Of a stretch of DNA of 64,000 nt, positions 5,118-50,309 are shown one piece after another. Within the stretch, counting starts at the first letter, position 1. Each line of letters opens with the position of its first letter. Both the position numbers and the translations under genes were made by a program. The stretch is from NCBI GenBank assembly GCA_963828165.1, contig CAWHDR010000001.1:2839511-2903510 (forward strand). Direction: 5' to 3'. Under the pieces are notes generated by a model, which was not told the DNA's origin, did not search any database, and saw only the letters and a program-made list of their open reading frames with translations. This stretch comes from an uncultured Chloroflexia bacterium (GTDB lineage Bacteria > Chloroflexota > Limnocylindria > Limnocylindrales > CSP1-4).

Positions 5118-7082
5118 ATGGTCGAGACACTCGAACTCGGTCGCGAAGCGATGAACCGCCACGCTTGGGCAGAGGCGGTGGACGTGTTCGTCGCAGTCGA
5201 CAACGACGGCGGCCTCGGAGCGGGTGACCTCGAACAGCTCGGCACTGCGGCCTGGTGGTCGGGGCAGCCTGACCAGGCCACGGAAGCGCTGGAACGGGCG
5301 TTCACCGCCTATGCCGACGCCGGCCAGTCGAGCGATGCCGCGCGGGTCGCCCTGGCCCTCGCGTACCAGGGTTTTCGTCGCCAGGCCGGTTCGGTCGGCG
5401 GTGGCTGGCTGGCCCGGGCGGCTCGTTTGCTCGAATCGGACCCTGAATCGCCGTCACACGCTCGGATCGCCGTCTTCCACACGCTCGGAGCGCTGATGGA
5501 GGGCCGACTGACGCAGGGCATCGAGCTGGCCGATCGAGCGATCGAGCTCGCGCAGAAACACCACGACCCCGATGCCAACTACCTGGCGATGAGCTTCAAA
5601 GGCATGGGCCTGGTGTTCGCGGGGGAGCTGGAGGCTGGTCTGGCCTTGATCGACGAGGCGGCCGCGGCGGCCGCCTCGGGACAGCTCGAGCTCCGGACCG
5701 CCAGCGACATCTACTGCAACACGATGGCCGCCTGTCGAAACGTCGGCGATCTCAAGCGCGCGAGCCAGTGGGCGGATGAAGGGGAGCGCTGGATGCGTCG
5801 CCAGGCGGTGGGCGGCTATCCCGGCATCTGTCGCGTGCATCGCGCCGAGCTCAAGCGACTCCACGGCCGATGGTCCGAGGCCGAGCAGGAGGCGCGCCAG
5901 GCCTGCGTGGAGCTCGAGCGCTTCGGGCTCCTCGATGCGGTTGGCTACGCGCAATACGAGGTGGGCGAGGTTCGCCTGCGGATGGGCGACCTGGACGCGG
6001 CCGGCGAAGCCTTCGACCGAGCGTACGAATACGGACACGACGCACAGCCAGGGATCGCACTCCTGCACCTGGCCCGCGGCGAGATCGACGAGGCCAAACG
6101 CTCGATCGAACGCGCGCTCGCGGCGACAACCAGCGGCGGGGGTGCCACCGACCGCGCGACCCGGGCGCGATTGCTCCCGGCCCAGATCGATATCGCCCTG
6201 GCGGCTGGCGACCTCGAGACCGCCGGCCCAGCCGTCGATGAGCTGGAAACGATCGCGACCGACTTCCACCGACCCGTGTTCGAAGCGGGCGCACTCACGG
6301 CCCGCGGAGAGCTCTTCCTCGGTGAGGATCGGCCCGCGGACGCATCGCCCCTCCTCGGACGGTCCTGGCGGATGTGGCAGGACACGGAACTGCCCTACGA
6401 GAGTGCCCGGGCGCGCCTGCGGTATGCCGAAGCCGAGGCGGCCGCGGGCGACCCAGAGGGTGCTCGCCGGGATCTGCGTGCTGCCCGCAGCGCGTTCGAG
6501 CGGCTCGGAGCGAGGCGCGACCTAGCACGCGTCGACGCGGTCCTGGGGGAGGGGTCCGAATCGTCGGCCCATGCCACCCGGCGGGTGACCAGGACGTTCA
6601 TGTTCACCGACATCGTCACGTCCACCGACCTCGTCGGGTTGATCGGCGATGACGCCTGGGGTGACCTGCTCAAATGGCACGACCGGGAGCTGCGATCCGC
6701 CTTTGCGAACCACCGCGGGGAGGAGGTCAAGCGCACCGGCGACGGCTTCTTCGTCGCGTTCGAGCGAGCCGCTGACGCCCTCGAGTGCGCGGTCGACATC
6801 CAACGCCGGCTGGCGCGGCACCGCCAGGATCACGGGTTTGCACCCACGGTCCGCATCGGTCTCCACACGGCGGAGGGATCGCGCGATGGCGGCGACTATC
6901 AGGGCCGAGGCGTGCACGTGGCCGCGCGCATCGGCGCGGCCGCGACGTCCGCTGAGATCCTCGTGTCGACCGGGACGCTTGGCGAGATGGGCTCGGTCCG
7001 TTTCGGGTTGTCCGAGACGCGCCAGCTCACCCTCAAGGGGGTCGAAGAGGCCGTGGAGGTCCGCAGCGTCGTCTGGCGGTAG
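5118..7082 (+). CDS. TPR-like helical sensor fused to class III adenylate/guanylate cyclase
   Basis: Ala-rich helical repeats followed by FMFTDIVTST, KRTGDGFF, RIGLHTAE and VHVAARIG. Confidence 0.85.
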   Translation: MVETLELGREAMNRHAWAEAVDVFVAVDNDGGLGAGDLEQLGTAAWWSGQPDQATEALERAFTAYADAGQSSDAARVALALAYQGFRRQAGSVGGGWLARAARLLESDPESPSHARIAVFHTLGALMEGRLTQGIELADRAIELAQKHHDPDANYLAMSFKGMGLVFAGELEAGLALIDEAAAAAASGQLELRTASDIYCNTMAACRNVGDLKRASQWADEGERWMRRQAVGGYPGICRVHRAELKRLHGRWSEAEQEARQACVELERFGLLDAVGYAQYEVGEVRLRMGDLDAAGEAFDRAYEYGHDAQPGIALLHLARGEIDEAKRSIERALAATTSGGGATDRATRARLLPAQIDIALAAGDLETAGPAVDELETIATDFHRPVFEAGALTARGELFLGEDRPADASPLLGRSWRMWQDTELPYESARARLRYAEAEAAAGDPEGARRDLRAARSAFERLGARRDLARVDAVLGEGSESSAHATRRVTRTFMFTDIVTSTDLVGLIGDDAWGDLLKWHDRELRSAFANHRGEEVKRTGDGFFVAFERAADALECAVDIQRRLARHRQDHGFAPTVRIGLHTAEGSRDGGDYQGRGVHVAARIGAAATSAEILVSTGTLGEMGSVRFGLSETRQLTLKGVEEAVEVRSVVWR

Positions 7083-7116
7083 CGGAGGCGCGAGCTGGGG
7101 CCCCGTCGTGGCCCCA

Positions 7117-39874: not shown

Positions 39875-39954
39875 GCGCCTCGAGGATGGCGACGGGCGCT
39901 GACTAGACTTTCGCTCGACCGAACCGGTTGGGGAACGAAAAAGAGGGAGCGTCG

Positions 39955-40482
39955 GTGACTGCAGGCACGCCGGACCGCGTCTATCGCGCGATCAGTCGAG
40001 TGAGTCATGACAACCGCCGCTACTGGCCGACCCTCGACGTCCCCGTCGCACCACAGCGCTGGAACCGAGAGGATCAGCCCACCATCTACGCGTCGCGCGA
40101 GCCGCAAGTCGCGGCAGCCGAGAAGCTTGGGCAACTGTCGAGATCACCGACGCTCCGCTCGGCGCGTGCATTCTGGAGCATCGCGCCGGCCACGGACGAG
40201 GTGTTCATCCTATCCTTCGACCCCAGCGTCTTTCGCGCCAACCTCGCCGATCTCACGGGTCTCCCGGACATCGGCGACTTCCTGACGCCGGACTACAAGG
40301 CCAGTCAGGAGCGCGCCGCCACCCTGCTCGCAAATGGGATGACGGCATTGCGCGCGCCGTCGGCGGTGTTCTGGCCAGACCTGCACCTCAACGAGGCGTA
40401 CTTCGTCACACTGCCTGGCCAGCCCCAACGGGAGCAGTTCCCGCAGGTGCACGAGTTCGGCAAGTTCAAGGGTGAGCCTTGA
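39955..40482 (+). CDS. RES domain protein (putative NAD-targeting toxin)
   Basis: VYR, QRWN...IYASREPQVAAAE, DYKASQ and LRAPSA, the R-E-S family pattern. Confidence 0.75.
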   Translation: MTAGTPDRVYRAISRVSHDNRRYWPTLDVPVAPQRWNREDQPTIYASREPQVAAAEKLGQLSRSPTLRSARAFWSIAPATDEVFILSFDPSVFRANLADLTGLPDIGDFLTPDYKASQERAATLLANGMTALRAPSAVFWPDLHLNEAYFVTLPGQPQREQFPQVHEFGKFKGEP

Positions 40483-40526
40483 CAGTGGGACCTAACTGGG
40501 ATATGGTCGGGACTCGAATGGGAGTC
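40479..40526 (+). promoter_or_regulatory. Sigma70-type promoter with phased GGGA repeats
   Basis: TTGACA (40479)-N17-TATGGT (40502). GGGA occurs at 40487, 40498, 40509 and 40520. Confidence 0.7.
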
Positions 40527-40531
40527 ATCGC

Positions 40532-40933
40532 ATGACCGCCGTCCTCGAATCGGTCAAAGCAACCCAGCAGGCGACCGACCAGAGTTCACTGCTCGCTATC
40601 GCCGCCTTCTTCGGGGTTCCTCCCACCGGCGAAGTGATGCAGCAACTCACCGGGAAGGGCAGCTCCGTGCTCGATCGGGTGAAGAACGGAGCCAAGCTCG
40701 GCTCGGCCGATGACCGCGCACACCTCGAGGTATTGGCGGCATTCGTCCGGGAGTTGCACGGGTACCTCACGCACGCGATGGGTTCACGCTCGCCCGACGC
40801 GCACGGCATGGAACGCTGGCTCGCTGCGGGCCAAGTCGAAGTCGGAGCCCGGACATACCGGCCGATCGAGGCGCTCGCCGATCGAGAACTCGCCATTGGC
40901 GCCCTGAACACGCTCCGCGCCACGCTGGACTGA
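40532..40933 (+). CDS. Putative Xre/MbcA/ParS-like antitoxin
   Basis: HTH-like N-half and C-terminal MERWL...GARTYRPIEAL resembling the DUF2384 W-L...P-I/L-E-L pattern. Adjacent to the RES gene. Confidence 0.55.
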   Translation: MTAVLESVKATQQATDQSSLLAIAAFFGVPPTGEVMQQLTGKGSSVLDRVKNGAKLGSADDRAHLEVLAAFVRELHGYLTHAMGSRSPDAHGMERWLAAGQVEVGARTYRPIEALADRELAIGALNTLRATLD

Positions 40934-41003
40934 CGCCAAACGCTCGTCGCATACACTCCGGCTGAGTCAACGCGAACCTGCGTCGATCGGGGGAGGGGAG
41001 AGG

Positions 41004-42943
41004 TTGCACCTCTACCAGGGCACGACCCAGCAGTTCATCGCCGACGCTACGCAGGCGCGCCTGGCGAACATGCTCTCCGACCGGTGGTTCGACGAGTTCC
41101 GCTACCGGCCGTCGCCGTCCGAGGTCACGTCCTGGCGAAACTCGCTCGAGCGCGATGGCGCACGTCCTCCAGGTCGCCGACCTGACCGACCAGGGGATCC
41201 TCGTCGAGCTCAAGATGCCGCTCACCTCGAAGCGGCTCGACGTCCTCATCACCGGCTCGAACCCCGACACGAAGCGCGACTCCGCCGTCATCGTCGAGCT
41301 CAAGCAGTGGACCGAGGTCGGCCGCTCGAACATCACCGACTGCGTCACCGTCGACTACGGCGGCAGGCCGCGCGACACCTCCACCCGTCGCGCCAGGTCG
41401 CGCAGTACCAGCGCTACCTGCTGGACACGCATCCGGCGTTCTCCGACGACCGCGCGATCGCGCTCGACGCCTGCGCCTACCTCCACTACGCCCAGCACGA
41501 CCCGACGTCGCCGCTCTACCACGCCGACTTCGCGACGCTGCTCGGCACGAACCCGTCGTTCGCCGGCGACCAGTCGGACGCGCTTCGCGACCTTCCTCGA
41601 CCAGCGCGTCGCCGGCCCGGACGAGGGCGAGATCCTCGAGCGCGTCGCCGCGACCGCCTTCAAGCCGCACAAGCGCCTGCTCGACCACGTCGCCCGCGTC
41701 ATCCGCAACGAGCCGACCTTCGTGCTCCTCGACGAGCAGCTCGTCGCCTACAACGCGATCCTCGACGCGGTCGGCCACGCCGGCACAGAACCAGCAGAAC
41801 GTCGTCTTCCTCATCGAGGGCGGCCCGGGCACCGGCAAGTCGGTCATCGCCCTCAACCTCGTCGCGGAGCTCGCCGAGCGCGGCCTCAGCACGCTCCACC
41901 TGACCGGCTCGAAGGCGTTCACCGAGAACCTGCGCAAGATCGTCGGCGGCCGGGCCGGCGCGCTGTTCAAGTACTTCCGCGACACCGCGACCGTCACCGA
42001 CAAGCTCGACGTCGCCATCCTCGACGAGGCCCACCGCATCCGGACGATCAGCACGAGCCGCTTCACGCCCGCGAAGGCGCGCACGGGCAAGTCCCAGATC
42101 GACGACATCCTCGACTCGAGCCGGGTCACCGTCTTCTTCATCGATGACCTGCAGGTCGTGCGCCCGGGCGAGGTCGGCAGCACGGACCTGATCCGCGAGG
42201 CGGCCGCCAAGCGCTGCGATCGAGGTCCGCGACTTCAAGCTCGAGGCGCAGTTCCGCTCGAACGGCTCCGATTCGTTCATCCAGTGGGTCGACAACACGC
42301 TCGAGCTCGACCGGACGCCGCAGGTCCTGTGGTCGATGGACGACGAGTTCGACTTCCAGATCGTCGGCTCGATCGGCCAGCTCGAGCAGAAGATCCGCGC
42401 CAAGGCCGGCGAGCCGGGACGACCGCCCGACTCGTCGCCGGCTTCTGCTGGCCCTGGTCCGACCCCGACGACGACGGCCAGCTCGTGCCGGACGTCAGGG
42501 TAGGGGAGTGGTCGATGCCCTGGAACGCCAGGGACGGCGTCGGCCGGCTCGGGCCCGGCATCCCGAAGTCGGACTTCTGGGCGAGCGCGAAGGAGGGGAT
42601 CGACCAGGTCGGCTGCGTCTACACCGCGCAGGGCTTCGAGTTCGACTACGTCGGCGTGATCGTCGGCCCCGACCTCGTCTACCGGCCGATGGACGGGGGA
42701 TGGGTCGGCCAGCGCGACCAGTCGCACGACCGCGTCGTCCGCCGCGGCGTCACCGAGGCCGAGTTCACCCGCTACGTCAAGAGCACCTACCGCGTCCTGC
42801 TGACCCGCGGCCTCCGCGGCTGCTACGTCTACTTCATGGACGCCCCGACGCGCGACTTCTTCCTGAGCCGGACCGAAAGCTCGCGCGGGGCTCTTCGTCA
42901 CACCGCGGAGACCAAAGCAACCTATGCACGCGATGGACAGTGA
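41004..42943 (+). CDS. DUF2075 (Schlafen group 3-type DNA/RNA helicase) with N-terminal nuclease-like domain; several frameshifts
   Basis: SEVTSWRNSL, KRLDVLI..IVELKQW, IEGGPGTGKS, ILDEAHR, ARLVAGFCWPW, GCVYTAQGFEFDYVG and YRVLLTRG. Confidence 0.88.
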
Positions 42944-44017
42944 TGCGTATCTCCGAAAGTCTCTCGAGCGACTTGATCGGAGCCGCCGGCCTGTTACTGC
43001 TTGGTCTGCTCGCCGCCGCATGGTTCCTCATCGGCCTTCCGGAGATGCCTTCCCTTGCAAGCCCAATCAACCTTGAAACCGGCCGCCCCTTGGAGGTCAC
43101 GCTCTCAGCGCAGTCCGCGCCACCTCCAGCCCAAGTCACCGTCCGAATCACTGTCGTGGACGCGAACACGAGTCAGGGAGACATTGCAGCGCTCGTGCAG
43201 GTTCGAATTGCGGACAAGCACCTACTCGCCCTTCGTGACGTAGCGACTCCTCCGATCTGCGCGGGGGCCAATCGACGGCGACGGGTACGGTTGTTGTCGT
43301 CAGGCGAAACGGACGGCTTGGACTCACCGACGATTGTTACGGGCAACTTGCGTTCGATCTGACCCTCCTACCCACCGAGGGTGGCGCCACGCACATATTG
43401 ATCGGCCTTGGGTCGGTCGTGGATCGGCCAACTGGCTTCACAGGAGCCAGCTTTGCCACAAACGTGGCGTCGCCCGCGTTCTCCACCCCGCGCGCCTTTC
43501 CTGATGACAAACAGTGGTACGCAGCGTTTCCATCGCTCTCCTACGATCGCCTCGTTGAGAGGACTGCGACAGGGTTTGCGTTCTACGCAGACGTGCGCTT
43601 TGAGATCGAGCGAGCCGGGCACTCGGAAGCCAGGATGTCAGCGTAGACACCGCGGCCGCCGATGGGAGTGCGCCAGTCTCATTCGTCGTTTCACGGGACG
43701 CCGTCACGCGATTGTGGGTGTATGGAGCAGCACTGCTTCCTACCGCCCTCTTCCTAGCGGTTAGTTTGAGTAGCAAGTCCAAAAACCGATCGGGCACTCA
43801 ACCGGACATCGACGTGCTGAACATCGGAATTTCGCTGCTGGCAATTCTGTCCTTATCGACGTCCTGGTCCCCGCCGAAGCGGAAACGCCAAATCGGGTCC
43901 AACGATTGTTGGTCGGCCAGATCGTGGCATTTGTTGTGTGGCCGAGCTGGCGGGATTGGCTCCGAAGATCGCATGTTGCGATGCGTTCGGCCCCTGACCC
44001 AGCATCACCCCGCGTAG
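42943..44017 (+). CDS. Putative membrane protein (N-terminal TM, soluble domain, C-terminal TMs); frameshifted, end approximate
   Basis: TGATG coupling to DUF2075. Hydrophobic segments lie in ORFs 42508-43362 and 43712-44017. Confidence 0.5.
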
Positions 44018-44063
44018 GGCAAGAACCACCGGCCGATCCGGGAACGATTGATCGGAGACCCAA

Positions 44064-46060
44064 ATGAAGTTGCTCCGGGCCAGGGTTCAGAACTATCGAA
44101 GCATCCTCGACAGCGGGTGGTTCGACGTTGAGGAACAGAAGACCATCTTGGTCGGGACGAACGAGTCGGGCAAGACCGCCCTCTTGCGCGCGCTCCAAAC
44201 ACTCAACCCTCCGGCAGGCGAAGGGGAACTGGAGGCCTTTCAAGACTTCCCGCGGTCAGACTATGGACGGATTTCGGGCGGGGCGACATCGCCCCCGAGG
44301 ATGTTGTCATCGTAGAAGGCGACTTCGCCGTCGATGAGGACCTCCGGGCCCGCCTCGCGGCTATCGACGCAACGATTCGGCATCGTTCAGACGGTCCGGA
44401 TTGCGCGCTACCTGGCTAACAATCGGCGAGTGTCGATGGACGGAGTAACGTCCAGTGTCCGCTGGCGCACGATGGCGCGTAAGTTTGGATCGGCTCCGCT
44501 CCAACGCCGAGAAGGCCGGGGGCCAGGAGGCGACACTCAGGGCATTTGACGTCTTATCGCGTGATTTGGACTCAGATGACTTCGTTCTTGGGGAGGTCGC
44601 CGAGAAGCTGTCTGAGTGGCTGCGCGAGTCCGCCCAGGTTTGAAGGCCTCAGATCAGGCCGCTGTTTTGACATCCCTGCTCGAGATTCGAACTGAGTTGC
44701 CCGGCCGACACGCTAGGGCTCGCGAAGCTGTGCTCGAAGCAGCTCCCCTCGCTCTTTGTCTATTACTCAAGCTTCACAACCGTGCGGCCCCGAATAACCT
44801 GTCCCTTCTAGCTACTCGAATACAGGCGAACGATGTGGACGCCGACCTGGACGCCGGCAATGTCGCTCTGTTCAAACTTCTTCGGCTCGACGCTGCCGAA
44901 GTCTCCGCCCAGGGCAAGGCATCGGTCAAATCGGTGACGTCGCAGGAAGACGCCGAGCAGGTACAGAACCAACTGGCCAAACGACAACATACCCTCGCTG
45001 AGGCTGGCGAAGGACCTCACTTCGGCCGTCCGAAAGGTATGCGGGGCGAGAAGCACAAACTGGAATTCCGCGCGGATGGCGATTGGGTGCGCGTAGTCGT
45101 CGTTGAGAATGATGTCGACATCGAACTGGATCAGCGCAGTGCCGGATTTCTTGTCTGGTTGGTCAGCTTTTATGTCGTCTTCAAGGCGGAAACGGCTGAC
45201 AACTTGGCAAATGCAATTCTTCCTTCTCGACGAACCAGGACTGAGTCTCTGATGCCCCGAAGCAACGACAATTTCGCGAAACTGTGTCGTCAATCGCGAC
45301 GGGCAATCAAACGCTATATACGACCCATTCACCTTTCATGGTGGGTCCAGATGAATTGCACCTGGTTCGCGTGGTCGAACTACGCTCCAGGAAGGGCACT
45401 CGGGTCCATCAAGGGGTCACCAGCGCTGATCCGGCCGCGCTATTTCCCCTCCAAGCGGCACTCGGGTACAGCATGGCGCAATCGCTGTTTGCGCAGCAGT
45501 CCGAACCTCGTTTGTGAAGGGCTCACCGATTTCTGGTACATCGAAGGCATGAGCAATCTGCTGGGCGAACGCAAGCGGCCTTCTCTTCGTGAAGACATAG
45601 CGATCGTGCCGGCTGGAGGAGCCAGCAAAGTGGCCTACTTTGCCGTTCTCCTTCGCGCCCAAAAGCTCCAGGTTGCAGCTCTGTTGGATTCCGACACCGA
45701 AGGCGAGCATGCGGCGGGCCTGAGCGAGTTCGTGTACGCCCTTGGTCGGGCGCAAATCCTTCGGACAGGCGACTTCACGGCGAAAGTCGGGACGCTCTAC
45801 CACGGAAGACCTCCGTATGACTCTTGTGCACGTTGCCAAGGCAGAACTTGGATGGGATGTACACAAAGCCGCGCTCTCGCAACCAGAGCGCCCAGTCCTC
45901 AAGATTTTCCAGACATCGCATTGGAAAGAACTTCTCCAAGTATCAGTTGGTGAAGGCCTTCGTCAGGTGGACTGGTGCTCATTCGCACAGGGATCTCGAC
46001 CCCGCTGAGGTATCGAATTGGACCCTTCTCTTCGGTCGAATTAACGAAATCCTGAAGTAG
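44064..46060 (+). CDS. OLD-family ATP-dependent nuclease (ABC ATPase + TOPRIM); many frameshifts
   Basis: VQNYRSI, VGTNESGKT (Walker A), RSAGF, LLDEPGLS (Walker B, shifted frame), YTTHSP, LVCEGLTD and LLDSDTEG. Confidence 0.88.
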
Positions 46061-46131
46061 AGGTTTGGAGACGGTCGGTGCTGTTGCGATGCGGCACGAG
46101 TACGGATCCGGACCTTCCTGGGAGACCCTAG

Positions 46132-47738
46132 GTGCGCCTAAGCCTTGAACTGGTCTCTGCATTGGACCTTGAATTCGCATCACACCAGGCGGCCGAGAGA
46201 GGCAGTGACTTCTTCCCGCTGACACTTGCGTTTCGCGCCGCGAACAATCCGGACTTCCTCCGTTGGCTTCGGTCGTCTTGGTCGAAGGGGTTTGTCGCCC
46301 GAGTCAACCCGAATTCGTTGTCGTGCCAAAGCTCGGCGCCGGTACCAGGCTGGCAGTGGACATGCCCGTCGAAGAACGACTGCTATTCGATGCGCTGTGC
46401 GCGCACTTATCGAACATTGCTCTTGGGCAGCTGGTGAATCGGTCAGTTGACTTCGAGGATCGCCCTGCCGCCGAAGACGTCCTCGCGCGAGGCGAAAACT
46501 CTCATGTCCTAATGACCGACATCGTCGCGTTCTACGACTACCTTGACCGGTCAAGACTTGCCATTGAGCTTGAGGACATCACTGGGGAAGGAGAGGCAAC
46601 TTCGGCCCTTTGTGAACTTCTTGACCATGCGATGGGAGATCGGGAAGGAATTCCCCGAAGGGTTGATGCCAACTGCTACGTTCTTGGGCGACGTATACCT
46701 GTCGATTGCAGATCGGGTGTTGGGCCGCGGGGGTACGCCAGTGGTCCGCTGGATCGACGACTATCGTTTCGCCGCGAGCAGTCTTAGGGACGCATTTCAC
46801 CTAAAGACCGAGCTGGAGCTCCAACTTAGGGATCTGGGACTTGTGATCAACTCGGCGAAGACTTGGATGCCAACGCGCGATGAGTACCGAGCGCTCATTG
46901 CGAGCCGAACGGGAGCGGAAGTCGACCGAGACCGCTCTCAAGAGCCGAATCGAAACGCGTATTCGAGATGAGTACGAAACCACTGACGCCGAGGACGATC
47001 GACCGAAATCGGTTCGAGCCAAGGGCGTCCGAATAGACCCCATCCTGGAGGGACGCAGCTCACAGAGGCTGCTGCGGACGACGCTGAATGGGGCGCGACA
47101 CCGCAGGGCTATGCGACGAGTCGTCGAATTGAACTCAGCCTGCGCGAACTCGGCCGGACGGGATCCTCGGCGCCGTTGGGAAGGCTAGGTGTGCTTCTGT
47201 TTCGGCACCCTCACCTGACGAAACAGGTTTCGTACTATCTGCGCACCAGGATCAACGGCGGTTGGGAAGCCGACACGGTTCGACTTGTGTCGGAGGCCTT
47301 GGCGGCCGATGCCTTTCCCTATCCCTGGCAGCGGGGTTGGCTCCTCCACGCACTAATCCCCGCCAAGAAGAAGCCATTGCCCCCAGCGGCTATTGATGTT
47401 CTCTGGCAGCGTTCCATGCTGACGATCTGAGTTTTGTTTCGCTGGTCGCGCGGCGATTGTCCTCGCAACCCAAGGACTTCTACCAGCTCGGTCCAGAGCT
47501 GGCGCACGCCTTCATCTGCGACGTGGCTAAATCCAACGGTGCGGATCTTGTGGGGGCTGCAAGCCTAATGCCCGAGACGACGGCGCGAGATCAAAACATA
47601 GAGTCGGTGCGTCGCGACCGCCTTCTTCTGTCGAGCAATTGCCGAGGCCAGCGCCGACACGAGCGCCATCTACTTGTGATGACATCGGCGGTAAAGAGTG
47701 AGTTCTGCACCTGGCTGGTCGCCGAACTTGAGCATTGA
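46132..47738 (+). CDS. Reverse transcriptase, UG/Abi-like, with helical C-terminal extension; frameshifted, end approximate
   Basis: Joined frames give VPKLGAGTR, TDIVAFYDYLD, GIPEG, FLGDVYL, RWIDD (46747-46761), LGLVINSAKT and later PYPWQRGWLL. Confidence 0.85.
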
Positions 47739-48305
47739 AGCCGAACGGGCAATTCGAAGACTTGAACCGCCTTCGAATAGTCATCGCCCGATCACAGGCC
47801 ACGATCCGTCTGATCCCGAGCCCAACGCGTCGAGCTCAACTCTCCGACTCGGCGGAACTGGGCGTCGTCCGGGCCTTCTCTGTGCTCGAATCTTATCTGA
47901 GCGAACGAGCAGACACCATCATTCGTGAGGACCTTCCGGTTCCTGCGTCCCCCACGTCGCTCACAAAATTCGCTCACCTCAACCTCCTAGGGGCTTTTCG
48001 CGGCAACTTCGAACGAGGGATGGTTGGCTTCTGGAAAAGGCCTCCAATGTCGATCTGCAGAAGCTTCCCGACGGGTGGAGTAGCGTCGACGAGTTTCGCG
48101 AGCTCCGAAATCTCCTTACTCACGGTTTGGGTTACATCCGGCCAGGCGGTGCTCAGCTCCCCAGAGTCTGGCCAAGCGCCTTCGAAAGGTCACGGCAGAT
48201 CCAGGAACCTTCACCGGAGGGGTCCCGGTGGAGAATGAGGATTTCGATGAAATGGCCCGACTGGTCCGATCGACCGTACTGTGGGTCGATCAGCAAGTCA
48301 CGTAA
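47735..48305 (+). CDS. HEPN-domain putative RNase; two frameshifts
   Basis: Helical N-terminus (VVRAFSVLESYL) and R-x4-H motif FRELRNLLTHG (RNLLTH at 48106-48123). Confidence 0.75.
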
Positions 48306-48331
48306 CGGACATAACTCACCTTCTCCCGGGA
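48304..48331 (-). other. Degenerate dif-like Xer recombination site
   Basis: Minus strand reads TCCCGGGAGAA-GGTGAG-TTATGTCCGTT. It shares 17 bp with the site at 49481. Confidence 0.75.
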
Positions 48332-48879
48332 CCCCTCGCCACCAGCTCATTTGCGGCCCCCAGACGCCCTAGGACGGCCGTGGCGCCGCTTTCCGCTCTT
48401 CGATGGCCGTCCGCCTGACTTCGGCGCTCCGGGCGGCGGGGGAGGGCTAGTTTCAGCCTCAGTCGGCGGCTGGCGATCGACGTCGGCGGCCGAGTCACCC
48501 GGCGCGACGTTCCGAGGACCGAGGGACTGCGGACCTGCGGTCCTTCCGTCCCCCGGTCAATCTCAGCGTGCGGGTCCTGAAATCGCGGGCCGTCAAGGGC
48601 GGCTCTGCCGAGCCGTCGCCTGCGGCGATCGCGGACCCTTGACCGCCCTCGTCCAGATCGATACGCCTGAGGCGGGCGCGAATGCAACCGGCGATGCTCT
48701 GGACACCGGAGCTCCGTCCGACCTGGTCGACGCGTCACGGACCAGCCGGCCGCGATCGCGGCCGCGATCGCCTCAGCCCGGGTCACGCCCTGCCGCGTCA
48801 GCGATGTCCAGCACCACCGGCCGTCGCGATCGGCGTAGTCGCAACCGAGGTTCCAGACCTGCAATCTCACCAGCGGCAT
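48316..48879 (-). CDS. Phage-like small Zn-binding protein (first ~65 aa; remainder doubtful)
   Basis: CDY...WC...AIAAGW...LRCPEH, preceded by TTGCAG-N17-TAGGAT-N6-ATG. Confidence 0.6.
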   Translation of the reverse strand: MPLVRLQVWNLGCDYADRDGRWCWTSLTRQGVTRAEAIAAAIAAGWSVTRRPGRTELRCPEHRRLHSRPPQAYRSGRGRSRVRDRRRRRLGRAALDGPRFQDPHAEIDRGTEGPQVRSPSVLGTSRRVTRPPTSIASRRLRLKLALPRRPERRSQADGHRRAESGATAVLGRLGAANELVARGPGRR

Positions 48880-48914
48880 AGCGACATCCTAAACACTCCC
48901 ACTGTTCACTGCAA
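48880..48914 (-). promoter_or_regulatory. Leaderless sigma70-type promoter
   Basis: -35 TTGCAG (48914-48909), 17-bp spacer, -10 TAGGAT (48891-48886), 6 nt to ATG. Confidence 0.65.
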
Positions 48915-49131
48915 GCCCTATTTGTCACGCATATGCAGTCCTGCACCTGTTGAGAGTGTCTATAGGTACGTTTGGTGTGTTGAGACATTGCCTCTGTGTC
49001 AAGGCCGCCAGACGCGCCGGAGCCCGAGTGCATCAACCAACACTCGGGCCCCGGGTCCTCACAGCGCGAGTGATCCACCGGTGTCGCCAACCACCGCACT
49101 CCGCGAGGCCGCTACATTTACGCCCAGATCG

Positions 49132-49395
49132 TCAGCTGTAGACGCGGGGCGGCGTGCCGTTCAGGGTGTCCCGATGCTCGTCCGTGAGCGCGAGTTGAGT
49201 TCGGATTGGCCAGAGCGCCAGGCGAAGATGCATGAAGCGCCCACAGACCGGGACCTGCCAGGGCGGACCCTCGCCGGCCCAGCCGTGCTCGTACATCATC
49301 GGCGACGGGAACTCAACCGACTCAACCGGCGACTCCCCGCAGACCACACAAATCCGCTCGCCGAACCGCCACCGGATCCACGGGTCCACGGGCAA
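49132..49395 (-). CDS. Small Cys/His-rich hypothetical protein
   Basis: CVVC...CGRFMH potential Zn ligands, inside the dif-flanked segment. Confidence 0.4.
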   Translation of the reverse strand: MPVDPWIRWRFGERICVVCGESPVESVEFPSPMMYEHGWAGEGPPWQVPVCGRFMHLRLALWPIRTQLALTDEHRDTLNGTPPRVYS

Positions 49396-49480
49396 TCGCG
49401 CCTCTCGAGAGACCGAACCCTCCGCGTCAGCGTTGCGGTCCGGCTGGGCCGCATTCTGGCCCTCAATGGGGTCAAAATCA

Positions 49481-49508
49481 ACCGGACATAACTCACCTTA
49501 TCGGAAGT
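49481..49508 (-). other. dif: dif site (XerC/XerD chromosome dimer resolution site)
   Basis: Minus strand reads ACTTCCGATAA-GGTGAG-TTATGTCCGGT, an 11-6-11 layout with the ATAA/TTAT dyad and TTATGT XerD-arm start. It is intergenic. Confidence 0.85.
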
Positions 49509-49544: not shown

Positions 49545-50309
49545 CTACCGCGCCGTCCAGCCGCCGTCGACCGTCAGGACGGTTCCTGTGACCATCCCGG
49601 CTGCCGGCGAGGCCAGATACAGCACCGCGGCGGCGACATCGGCCGTCGACGCGACGCGGCCGGCCGGGATCCGCTCCAGGACGGACGTGAGGAATACCGG
49701 ATCGTCCAGGCGCTCCGCCGTACCGGGCGTGTAGACCCATGTCGGGGCGACGCAGTTGACCGTGACGCCCTGTGGCGTCCACTCCAGCGCCAACACGCGC
49801 GTCAGGCCGATCACCGCCGCCTTGCTCGCCGAATAGGCCGCGTGGCGCGGGATGCCGACCAGACCGGCCTGAGACGCCATGTTGATGATCCGTCCGGAAC
49901 CCTGCGGCAGCATCACCCGGGCGGCGGACTGTGAGGCGAAGAAGAGCCCGCGGACGTTGACCGCGAACAGCTCGTCCCACTCGGCCTCGGTCGCGTCGAT
50001 CGCGTCGTGGTTCGTCCCGAGCCCGGCGTTGTTGACGAGGATGTCGAGTCGCCCGAACGCGTCGACGACCTGCGCGACCGCGCGTTCGATCGACACACGG
50101 TCGGTCAGATCGAGCTCGACAGGGGAGGCTTCGCCACCCGCGGCGCGGATGGCGCTGACGACCGAATTGACGCGCTCCCCTGCCCTCCCGGCAACCCCGA
50201 CCCGAGCGCCGGCCTCGGCGAACGCCATGGCCAGATCGGCGCCGATGCCCCCGGTCGCACCCGTCACGAGCACGACCTGACCCTCGACCGAGAACGAAAC
50301 GGCGGTCAC
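49545..50309 (-). CDS. SDR family oxidoreductase
   Basis: TGATGGIG, NNAG, YSASK and VDGGW. TAGGCT-N6-GTG start. Confidence 0.93.
   Translation of the reverse strand: MTAVSFSVEGQVVLVTGATGGIGADLAMAFAEAGARVGVAGRAGERVNSVVSAIRAAGGEASPVELDLTDRVSIERAVAQVVDAFGRLDILVNNAGLGTNHDAIDATEAEWDELFAVNVRGLFFASQSAARVMLPQGSGRIINMASQAGLVGIPRHAAYSASKAAVIGLTRVLALEWTPQGVTVNCVAPTWVYTPGTAERLDDPVFLTSVLERIPAGRVASTADVAAAVLYLASPAAGMVTGTVLTVDGGWTAR

Follow-up and report, generated by a model that had tools for sequence, protein, structure and literature searches.

A foreign insert between the chromosomal dif and a degenerate dif-like site in a Limnocylindrales bacterium: a probable footprint of Xer-mediated integration

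Our analysis revealed a locus that is probably the footprint of a Xer-mediated integration, in which a small circular DNA would have entered the chromosomal dif site in the manner of an IMEX. The window, i.e. the whole 64-kb stretch of DNA that was analysed, contains two directly repeated sites enclosing a short insert (Table 1). The first-pass annotation of this DNA had proposed an integrated Xer-exploiting element, and the arrangement shows the anatomy of one: a dif at the terminus, a direct dif-like copy, foreign DNA lacking a recombinase between the two, and XerC-like and XerD-like genes in the host.

Table 1. Features of the dif locus and its surroundings (positions within the window).
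Feature	Position	Strand	Remarks
Decaying defence-type island	41186..48303	+	XerD-arm side; G+C 61.7%, 58.6% for 44000-48303
Schlafen-like helicase	41186-42943		in island
Protein with OLD/GajA-like TOPRIM	44616-45953		in island
UG22-type reverse transcriptase	46209-47430		in island; split over three frames
Degenerate dif-like site (hybrid junction)	48304..48331	-	TCCCGGGAGAA GGTGAG TTATGTCCGTT; XerC arm non-canonical, overlap and XerD arm kept
ORF187, doubtful gene	48316..48879	-	first ~60 residues protein-like; rest an Arg-rich tail typical of a G+C-rich open frame
Insert, 1,149 bp	48332..49480	.	67.1% G+C; flanking core DNA 69-70.5%
Spacer between ORF187 and ORF87	48880..49131	.	58.7% G+C; putative internal promoter region
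ORF87, small zinc-finger protein, 87 aa	49132..49395	-	Cys16, Cys19, Cys51, His56
Chromosomal dif	49481..49508	-	ACTTCCGATAA (XerC arm) GGTGAG (overlap) TTATGTCCGGT (XerD arm), 11-6-11
Short-chain dehydrogenase (SDR) gene	49545..50309	-	core flank on XerC-arm side of dif; Pfam adh_short_C2 8.5e-65

The right site had been read at first pass as a full dif of 11-6-11 layout, and this reading held. Its inner palindrome is ATAA/TTAT, its XerD arm is of the TTATGT type, and ATAA-N6-TTAT occurs in the 3.31-Mb assembly at this site only. A weight matrix built from 28 distinct full dif sites of related genomes of the genus (consensus ACTTCCGATAAGGTGAGTTATGTCTG) was run across the whole 3.31-Mb assembly on both strands, and the right site scored 50.0 bits. 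XerC and XerD arms were assigned by likeness to the proteobacterial dif sites published in the tables of PMC2731167, the host lineage here being Limnocylindrales. The criteria listed in that source describe dif as non-coding, near the terminus, palindromic, low in G+C and conserved in its XerD arm. The right site is a 28-bp palindromic, non-coding site, present as a single copy at the terminus and conserved among relatives; it lies between the insert and the SDR gene, 36 bp from the stop of the latter. The dif core was kept in 80/120 and 99/130 other genus genomes (two half-patterns), nearly always once per genome, and its flanks vary among these genomes while the core stays conserved. The right site is, by these features, the chromosomal dif, and a working role in dimer resolution is predicted from its sequence.

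Its position agrees with a location opposite dnaA. The distance from dif to dnaA is 1,650,927 bp versus 1,660,286 bp for the remaining assembly, which is about half and approximate in that the assembly comprises six unordered contigs (87.7% marker completeness, 2.1% contamination; it looks metagenome-assembled). GC skew had been suggested at first pass as a check for a terminus. Its cumulative curve is lowest in the bin that begins at 2,880,000, roughly 9 kb off the site; the signal is weak, however, with 14.5 kb of contig left past the site. Because the skew is weak here, the terminus call rests instead on the dnaA distance and on gene-strand bias: there is a coding excess on the plus strand from ~1.3 to 2.9 Mb, and the orientation of the window ORFs converges, with 14 plus and 5 minus before 41 kb and 4 plus and 8 minus after dif. 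A better dif elsewhere, named beforehand as part of what would count against the idea, does not occur in the assembly.

The left site lies 1.2 kb away in direct orientation to dif. Scanned with the dif matrix over the 3.31 Mb, it is the runner-up of the genome with 14.1 bits, ahead of all others, which reach 5.6 bits at most; with the right site at 50.0 bits, the pair is therefore far beyond chance. As described at first pass, the window holds exactly two copies of the 17-mer CGGACATAACTCACCTT, both on one strand (48306-48322 and 49483-49499; 1177 bp from start to start), and a search allowing up to 3 mismatches found no further match in the window. Two or more matches were obtained in 0/100 dinucleotide-preserving shuffles (mean 0.04). 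The earlier description of the left site also proved accurate: it keeps 6/6 positions of the overlap and 10/11 of the XerD arm, and its XerC arm agrees with the right site at 4/11 (7 mismatches over 28 positions). Past the 17-mer, the two sites agree at only 3/9 of the next bases. Since its XerC arm is so poor, binding of XerC at the left site is doubtful.

The DNA between the sites is foreign. Comparison with relatives, which had been recommended at first pass, found it at E <= 1e-6 in 0/130 other genus genomes, and there is no second copy in its own genome; the genus comparison also showed no close relative with the same left flank. None of the six open frames of the insert region matched Pfam at E <= 0.01, and no recombinase, integrase, transposase or replication gene was found, in line with the earlier remark that no rep gene is visible. 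Searches for rep, phage and transfer families were likewise negative (Pfam and PADLOC; PHROGs for ORF87 only), no PADLOC or Rfam family was detected, and terminal inverted repeats were not found (score 9 versus a null of 7.5 +/- 1.3, reached by 96/500 shuffles). Rfam flg-Rhizobiales was rejected as a candidate, its 20.3 bits being at chance level against a cut-off of 55, and nothing reached gathering level. A simple promoter and terminator scan, the spacer 48880..49131 included, returned 0 sigma-70-like or terminator-like sites. ORF187 had no Pfam match, and its first 70 residues had no homologue among proteins of 38-123 aa.

ORF87 is the single credible gene of the insert, with a codon composition of GC3 0.79 and GC2 0.51; the database gene call begins two codons later and gives 85 aa. 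Its family is rare: among 1.84 billion representatives there were 19 homologues at E <= 1e-3 and 8 at E <= 1e-10, and the closest was one homologue with 71% identity. Across the relatives the three cysteine ligands of the putative zinc site are invariant and the histidine is near-invariant. These relatives are mostly found on contigs of 1-4.5 kb, with one on a 602-kb contig, and one of them is fused to an excisionase-type HTH (phrog_66), its source name being 'excisionase family DNA binding protein'. Pfam, PHROGs and PADLOC gave no family for ORF87, and in the Atlas it fell into unnamed clusters only, with recognition below the mark. Its AF2 model has a mean pLDDT of 87.4; Foldseek found no PDB match at E <= 0.001, and the best Z in a wide VIA-align search was 2.7. 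A profile search found the protein in none of 400 other genomes of the order. A single-protein search of the genus gave four weak matches (E 3.6e-4 to 7.8e-3), and the best of these proved to be a junk frame, rich in Arg and Pro and interrupted by a stop. Candidate matches from other sources were rejected: two metagenome loci that encode a glycosyltransferase with a chance 14-residue motif; one weak match in genome contigs, from an unrelated MAG with 29 residues aligned; and three in viral contigs, where the matching frames run antisense to a phage gene.

An XerC-like and an XerD-like recombinase are encoded on contig C5 of the host. The XerD-like gene scored 321.7 bits (NF001399, cut-off 279) and the XerC-like gene 279.7 bits, and both recombinases score under the XerC and XerD equivalog cut-offs. 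Homologues of the host XerD with 81-82% identity are named Candidatus Limnocylindrales, phylum Chloroflexota, which bears out the suggestion that the element belongs to a lineage other than Proteobacteria. On the XerC-arm side of dif the SDR gene is core DNA, with DNA identities of 81% and 76% in two genus genomes; the XerD-arm side is occupied by the defence-type island. We looked for a tandem array or a third dif-like site that would bracket this low-G+C island on the left, and the matrix gave none above 5.6 bits in the whole assembly.

From this anatomy we infer a recombination event between an ancestral dif, reconstructed as ACTTCCGATAA-GGTGAG-TTATGTCCGTT, and an attP that mimicked dif and was carried by a small circular DNA; this attP, reconstructed as TCCCGGGAGAA-GGTGAG-TTATGTCCGGT, would have combined a perfect overlap and a good XerD arm with a non-canonical XerC arm. 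The XerC-like and XerD-like recombinases of the host would catalyse the integration, which would place 1.15 kb on the XerD-arm side. Exchange inside the identical overlap would yield an intact dif beside the core genome, made of the host XerC arm and the XerD arm of the element, and would leave a hybrid site with a poor XerC arm at the far side of the insert. As the exchange would rebuild an intact dif next to the core, inserted DNA would therefore always lie on the XerD-arm side of that dif. With its poor XerC arm, the hybrid site would restrict re-excision and hold chromosome-dimer resolution at the intact site. The locus shares with IMEX the position at dif with a direct dif-like partner, the lack of an own recombinase in a host that has Xer genes, and the absence from relatives; functions for autonomous replication, packaging or transfer were not found. 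By its gene content the insert would be at most a non-autonomous element or a relic, which could not replicate or recombine alone. With a degenerate-looking ORF187 and one credible gene, a relic fits as well as a live element, and we consider a non-autonomous element with ORF87 as its own accessory factor about as probable as the trimmed remainder of a larger element.

The same pattern occurs elsewhere in the genus. In genome G011, the site CGATCCTATAA-GGTGAG-TTATGTCTGGA lies at a distance of 822 bp from the full dif; order and orientation are those seen here, and the arrangement is inside an 874-kb contig. Its insert (794 bp, 62% G+C) is unrelated to that in the window, is unique among 131 genus genomes, and showed no terminal inverted repeats and no Rfam match. 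In this dif-like site the similarity runs on into the XerC arm with scattered mismatches (7/11). Judged by its arrangement, G011 is a second, independent case. The flanks of dif across the genus show the asymmetry that the integration model predicts: in 40 genus dif loci cut at +/-1.5 kb, 13 had a contig end at no more than 1.4 kb on the XerD side and 2 had one on the XerC side, and the XerD side was lower in G+C in 24/29 loci with both flanks (mean difference 3.1 points), a test that overstates the effect because related genomes are not independent.

Viral sequences provide a lead to dif mimics of the same polarity, which would be the counterpart of the putative attP and were recognised by short exact matches. 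An exact search of IMG/VR with GGTGAG+TTATGTCYG gave 62 loci, of which 11, from 10 distinct viral contigs, have a local G+C of at least 60%. The XerC arms of these 11 match the consensus at 2, 6, 8, 6, 6, 4, 7, 7, 6, 5 and 2 of 11 positions; they include ACTACCGGCAA, ACTGCCGTGAT and ACTACCGTGAT, and several keep ACTNCCG. Two of the viral records are tailed phages, and in one that is ~90% complete the site directly follows a small ORF read as Cro-like. Terminase and portal DNA with 66-71% identity is present on contigs of two genus genomes. The eight viral records tested showed no match to tyrosine or serine recombinases; seven of them are only 11-38% complete, so that absence means little in those. 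tblastx of the viral contigs against the dif flanks of G097, G126, G142, G011 and the window returned short low-complexity matches only, and the viral records G461-G463 contained no relative of ORF87.

Other origins of the locus have to be weighed against integration by Xer. The identity of the two sites is exactly 17 bp long and stops abruptly, which is also how a 17-bp target duplication would look; a non-autonomous IS derivative with target duplications of 16-17 bp might have landed in dif; the 17-mer would then be the target copied on insertion, and the staggered cut would have produced the intact right site as a side effect. The account of the IS1202 family in bioRxiv 10.1101/2022.12.17.520857 lists 67 members with 16-17-bp direct repeats and another subgroup that targets Xer sites. 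We nevertheless regard transposition as improbable. The insert encodes no transposase or Pfam family, neither it nor the G011 insert has terminal inverted repeats, and no further copy exists in its own genome or in 130 genus genomes. According to the same account, members of the subgroup that targets Xer sites insert 5-6 bp to the side of them and not within them. The scattered mismatches in the XerC arm of G011 resemble a diverged site and not a clean duplication, and the viral dif mimics have the identical polarity.

It is also conceivable that Xer acted on DNA that was no dedicated element, i.e. that a random circular fragment with a pseudo-dif (an XerD half-site plus GGTGAG) was captured by one illegitimate integration with no adaptation involved. 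The tiny insert with its single credible gene, the lack of any mobility-linked function and the random-looking XerC arm would suit this explanation, which we still hold to be unlikely: a random 1.2-kb circle of 67% G+C would be very unlikely to contain a 15-nt exact match (the overlap together with 9 nt of the XerD arm), the same polarity is found again in G011 and in several viral contigs that retain ACTNCCG in their XerC arms, and the ORF87 family is conserved, with one member fused to an excisionase-type HTH. That the second site and the insert derive from a co-assembled strain variant or from a mis-join at the terminus seems very improbable. The 2.9-Mb contig carries the two sites in its interior, at 14.5 kb from the end, and its sequence is continuous across both junctions; a mis-join would not make a differing XerC arm, and G011 has the same arrangement within its 874-kb contig. 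Points in favour of such an artefact are the metagenome-like nature of the genome (87.7% complete, 2.1% contamination), the frequent breaks of contigs at dif in related assemblies, and the relative G097, in which the XerC-side flank is present twice with 98% identity on two contigs.

Integration by Xer being the preferred reading, the locus can be compared with known systems. The first-pass annotation had likened one intact and one XerC-degenerate site to the appearance of TLC and of the gonococcal island, and this likeness does not hold: as their sites are presented in PMC5357621 and PMC6744903, it is the XerD arm that diverges in both, the XerC arm and the centre being kept, which is the reverse of the polarity found here. 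The characterised XerCD-dependent IMEXs whose sites are described in the relevant sections of these two sources keep the XerC arm. What the locus shares with TLC, as portrayed in PMC6744903, is a small integrase-less element at dif, an intact dif together with a site degenerate in one arm and with an identical or nearly identical overlap, and a small accessory protein; that of TLC is XafT, whose members mostly lack an HTH, though some have one. The degenerate arm is that of XerD in TLC and that of XerC here; XafT is a DUF3653 protein that binds XerD, whereas ORF87 has no Pfam match and is predicted to adopt an unrelated zinc-binding fold; and TLC is a replicating satellite phage, in contrast to a 1.15-kb insert with no rep gene in a host of another phylum. 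The TLC satellite phage has a size of about 5 kb.

The gonococcal island (GGI) of Neisseria is similar in that it sits stably at the host dif, bounded on its other side by a degenerate dif-like site thought to block excision, according to the descriptions in PMC5357621 and PMC6744903. It differs by its 57 kb, its type IV secretion system and its degenerate XerD arm, and its stability is explained by FtsK stripping XerCD off the degenerate site, which need not hold for a defect in the XerC arm. LME-1 of Legionella pneumophila is comparable since its attachment site revealed the host dif, and the wild-type and modified dif that flank it recombine poorly according to PMC9765430; it is a large phage-like element in a host with the single recombinase XerL, and its modified site has three substitutions, while here there are two recombinases and a whole arm is replaced. 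The filamentous phages CTX and VGJ use host XerCD at dif with no integrase, as outlined in PMC5357621. They differ as filamentous ssDNA phages, and the attP of CTX is a folded hairpin, its integration requiring no more than the XerC exchange; likeness to filamentous phages was not found in the insert (Pfam; PHROGs for ORF87). In the pdif modules of Acinetobacter the flanking sites are inverted (XerC/D and XerD/C) and both complete. Such pdif (xrs) modules resemble the locus in having one or few genes between Xer sites and are thought to be moved by host XerCD in the accounts of PMC7399989 and 10.1101/2022.12.17.520857; they are plasmid-borne, in contrast to direct repeats at a chromosomal terminus with one arm lost. 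The IS1202 family has in common the 17-bp direct repeat and a link to Xer sites, its direct repeats being given as 5-6, 16-17 or 27-28 bp (10.1101/2022.12.17.520857). The insert has neither a DDE transposase nor inverted terminal repeats, and in the ISAba32 subgroup, as characterised in that preprint, insertion occurs beside a Xer site with 5-6-bp repeats. The arm polarity of TLC and GGI, an XafT-like DUF3653 protein, the transposase and inverted repeats of IS1202, and a pdif module were all not found at this locus.

The Xer-exploiting elements covered in PMC5357621, PMC7399989, PMC9765430 and PMC6744903 come from Proteobacteria, namely Vibrio, Neisseria, Xanthomonas, Enterobacter and Legionella. 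A full-text literature search gave no relevant report of such elements in Actinobacteria and, among the matches listed, no report of Xer/dif integrative elements in Chloroflexi. We put forward, as a possibility that we consider doubtful, that Limnocylindria-type Chloroflexota host an unseen class of Xer-exploiting elements whose attP retains the XerD arm together with the overlap, the XerC arm being replaced. This class would range from non-autonomous inserts of 1 kb to integrase-less temperate tailed phages, ORF87 would be an analogue of XafT that brings XerC to the poor arm or activates it there, and inserted DNA would pile up on the XerD side of dif. If the Xer-mediated reading of the locus is right, it would extend the phenomenon to an uncultured phylum of soil and freshwater; it would show that the arm polarity can be turned round, raising the questions of how XerC reaches a site for which it should have no affinity and of the order of the two strand exchanges; and foreign DNA together with contig breaks on the XerD side of dif would serve as a search rule for metagenomes. 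If the insert is only a relic, the significance would be modest, as a further scar in a place already known as a hot spot. In addition, the locus fixes dif and the terminus for a lineage that lacks cultured genetics.

A three-chain fold of the XerC-like protein, the XerD-like protein and ORF87 lends weak support to a predicted association of ORF87 with the Xer recombinases. Its ipSAE was 0.57 (runs 0.57, 0.64 and 0.49). The pass mark is reached by 116/157 solved complexes and 2/215 mismatched pairs, in a calibration that differs from the present case of three chains and custom alignments; values of 0.60 or lower were found among those passing for 18/157 solved complexes and for both mismatches that passed. 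The best of three controls gave 0.00, a value that was also obtained for the control in which the XerC-like chain was replaced. The three-chain runs agreed in at least 80% of contacts, and the partner pLDDT was at least 80.

The right one of the two paired sites is the chromosomal dif. Throughout the assembly (3.31 Mb in 6 contigs, 70% G+C, with the window forming the final 64 kb of the 2.90-Mb contig) the pattern ATAA-N6-TTAT occurs a single time, namely at this site, and a dif matrix derived from 28 distinct sites of related genomes gave the right site 50.0 bits and the left one 14.1, with nothing else above 5.6. In the comparison with relatives that the first-pass annotation had proposed, half-site patterns matched in 80 of 120 and 99 of 130 further genomes from the genus, nearly always once per genome; the DNA between the two sites was found in none of the 130. 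The genus 28-mers align to ACTTCCGATAA GGTGAG TTATGTCYG plus two variable bases, with flanks that vary. The distance from the right site to dnaA is 1,650,927 bp and the remaining assembly sums to 1,660,286 bp. Between about 1.3 and 2.9 Mb the plus strand holds the coding excess, and of the high-GC3 ORFs in the window 14 are plus and 5 minus up to 41 kb, against 4 plus and 8 minus beyond the right site. GC skew, named in the same annotation as a check for a terminus, gave a weak signal: the cumulative minimum lies in bin 2,880,000, with the contig end 14.5 kb beyond the right site, and the skew declines along the presumed leading strand, which is an unusual sign. Between 1.24 and 2.89 Mb of this contig (C1) cumulative G-C skew drops on the strand that encodes most genes downstream from dnaA, giving an excess of C over G on the presumed leading strand; on the other replichore it is flat. 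Both sign and asymmetry are unusual.

Coordinates of the paired sites, the insert and the loci compared with them (window positions unless a contig or locus is named)
Feature	Location	Strand	Remarks
Right site	49481-49508	minus	ACTTCCGATAA GGTGAG TTATGTCCGGT
Left site	48304-48331	minus	TCCCGGGAGAA GGTGAG TTATGTCCGTT
ORF87	49395-49132	minus	base composition coding-like
Low-G+C spacer in insert	48880-49131		58.7% G+C
ORF187	48879-48316	minus	Arg-rich tail
Whole defence-type island	39907-47430		beside terminus
RES-domain ORF	39907-40482		in the island beside terminus
Schlafen-like helicase	41186-42943		weak AbiO/Nhi likeness
Protein with OLD/GajA-like TOPRIM	44616-45953
UG22-class reverse transcriptase	46209-47430		split over three frames
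dnaA	C1:1,237,837-1,238,319
Mini insert locus of G011	L050 (G011:C6) 6247-7096		degenerate site and full dif 822 bp apart
Duplicate dif flanks of G097	C1:~18.6-24.3 kb, C3:~13.9-21 kb		L057, L058
Viral record loci	G461 L080/L143; G462 L081/L149; G463 L084/L159; G464 L163
Viral record loci	G465 L164; G466 L178/L202; G467 L183/L203; G468 L147

The 17-mer CGGACATAACTCACCTT occurs in the 64-kb window only at 48306-48322 and 49483-49499, even with up to 3 mismatches allowed, and none of 100 shuffled windows held two matches. Minus-strand reading bears out what the first-pass annotation had described: the right site is a complete 11-6-11 site, and the left one shares its overlap and XerD arm but has a degenerate XerC arm. 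Arm names were assigned from likeness to the published dif sites in the tables of PMC2731167. An imperfect 23-nt inverted repeat (48217-48239 and 48315-48337, 78% complementary, 75 nt apart) flanks the XerD arm of the left site, with one of its arms spanning the overlap and the degenerate XerC arm; this may be chance.

From this anatomy we infer that both sites arose by recombination of an element with an ancestral dif. A small circle with attP TCCCGGGAGAA-GGTGAG-TTATGTCCGGT would have met an ancestral dif ACTTCCGATAA-GGTGAG-TTATGTCCGTT, and a crossover within the identical overlap would yield precisely the observed pair: an intact dif that combines the XerC arm of the host with the XerD arm of the element and adjoins a core SDR gene, and a hybrid site with a poor XerC arm on the far side of the insert. 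The analogy to TLC phage and the gonococcal island drawn in the first-pass annotation fails on polarity, since these elements, as described in the relevant sections of PMC5357621 and PMC6744903, retain the XerC arm and the overlap and are degenerate in the XerD arm, whereas here the XerC arm is degenerate. With polarity reversed, inserted DNA is expected to lie beyond the XerD arm of the intact dif. Full-text literature searches turned up nothing relevant on Xer-exploiting elements from Actinobacteria or Chloroflexi; non-proteobacterial cases may be listed in the DUF3653 survey tables of PMC6744903.

A second case was found in the genome of another species of the genus, G011, where CGATCCTATAA-GGTGAG-TTATGTCTGGA lies 822 bp from a full dif, with order and orientation as in the window. 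Its insert (794 bp, 62% G+C) is unrelated to that of the window, unique among 131 genus genomes, and has no obvious gene or ORF and no Rfam match. A weaker third dif-like stretch is present at 6463-6490 of this locus. Of 40 dif loci from the genus (L020-L059, L071-L073 and the window, each cut at +/-1.5 kb), 13 have a contig end on the XerD side and 2 on the XerC side, and in 24 of 29 the XerD side has the lower G+C; these counts come from related genomes that are not independent. The XerD side looks like the variable side of dif genus-wide; in the window, a defence-type island of decaying genes with 58-62% G+C lies there.

The window insert (1,149 bp, 67.1% G+C) matched no Pfam, PADLOC or Rfam family, and a search for terminal inverted repeats found none. 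Its two open frames are both directed from dif towards the left site. ORF187 looks degenerate from its sequence, and its first 70 residues had no homologue among proteins of 38-123 aa. The ORF87 family is rare, with one homologue at 71% identity and, among 1.84 billion representatives, 19 matches at E <= 1e-3 and 8 at E <= 1e-10; Cys16, Cys19 and Cys51 are invariant and His56 nearly so. The predicted model is confident (pLDDT 87.4) and matched none of the solved folds. One relative has an N-terminal excisionase-type HTH. The ORF87 profile matched none of the 400 other genomes of the order searched, and searches for the genomic context of relatives returned spurious matches only. The relatives (P0003-P0012) are mostly on contigs of 1.0-4.5 kb, with one on a 602-kb contig; short contigs are the metagenome norm, though small elements, or assembly breaks where sites are repeated, would give the same picture.

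Contig C5 encodes one XerD-like and one XerC-like protein, both above the generic tyrosine-recombinase subfamily cut-off and under the XerC/XerD equivalog cut-offs, and a third tyrosine recombinase matched weakly at C1:454 kb. XerD homologues with 81-82% identity carry the name Candidatus Limnocylindrales (phylum Chloroflexota). A three-chain complex of the XerC-like protein, the XerD-like protein and ORF87, predicted with an alignment for each, scored 0.57 (runs 0.57, 0.64 and 0.49), with at least 80% of contacts in agreement between runs and partner pLDDT of at least 80; controls, including replacement of the XerC-like chain, reached 0.00 as best of 3. Of 157 solved complexes 116 pass the score mark, as do 2 of 215 mismatches; passing scores of at most 0.60 comprise 18 of the 157 and both mismatches. 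The verdict was weak support; the job was unlike the calibration set, and the prediction is a lead towards ORF87 as a possible XerC-directed helper rather than evidence that it binds.

Exact matching of the overlap and XerD arm (GGTGAG plus TTATGTCYG) against IMG/VR gave 62 loci, most on A+T-rich contigs and expected to be chance matches. At 11 loci with local G+C of at least 60%, on 10 distinct viral contigs, the XerC arms agree with the genus arm at 2 to 8 of 11 positions, and several retain ACTNCCG with the inner ATAA altered. None of eight viral records tested (G461-G468), of which only G463 is about 90% complete, matched a tyrosine or serine recombinase. Two of them, G463 and G466, are tailed phages; in G463 the site directly follows a small ORF, read as Cro-like. 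Each of the two carries another TTATGTCTG half-site 76-88 nt downstream, and in G466 ACTGCCGATAA is present too, about 60 nt upstream. Terminase and portal DNA like that of G463 (66-71% identity) lies on contigs of two genus genomes, G075 and G023. Judged by sequence, these viral contigs are candidate integrase-less temperate tailed phages that may use host Xer.

Other origins of the pair were weighed. An IS1202-type element that duplicates a 17-bp target would fit the repeat length, but we consider this origin improbable, as transposase, inverted repeats and further copies are missing and the G011 and viral sites would be left unexplained. One-off illegitimate capture is conceivable, but the recurrence of this polarity speaks against it. 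An assembly artefact is unlikely given that the sites sit within long contigs. If the insert did enter by Xer recombination, the chances of a live element and of a relic are about equal.

Three genus assemblies (G097, G126 on C78/C344, G142 on C11/C21) have two full dif sites on separate contigs. In G097 about 5.7 kb of XerC-side flank is duplicated at 98% identity through dif and then diverges, which could reflect either a mixture of strains or an element of ~38 kb bounded by two dif sites. In eight genomes (G082, G114, G055, G127, G070, G087, G095 and G023) the dif overlap is TGTAAG instead of GGTGAG with the XerC arm unchanged; with such hosts, elements with a GGTGAG attP would be confined to a subset of the genus. 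In G129 the overlap is TGTTAG.
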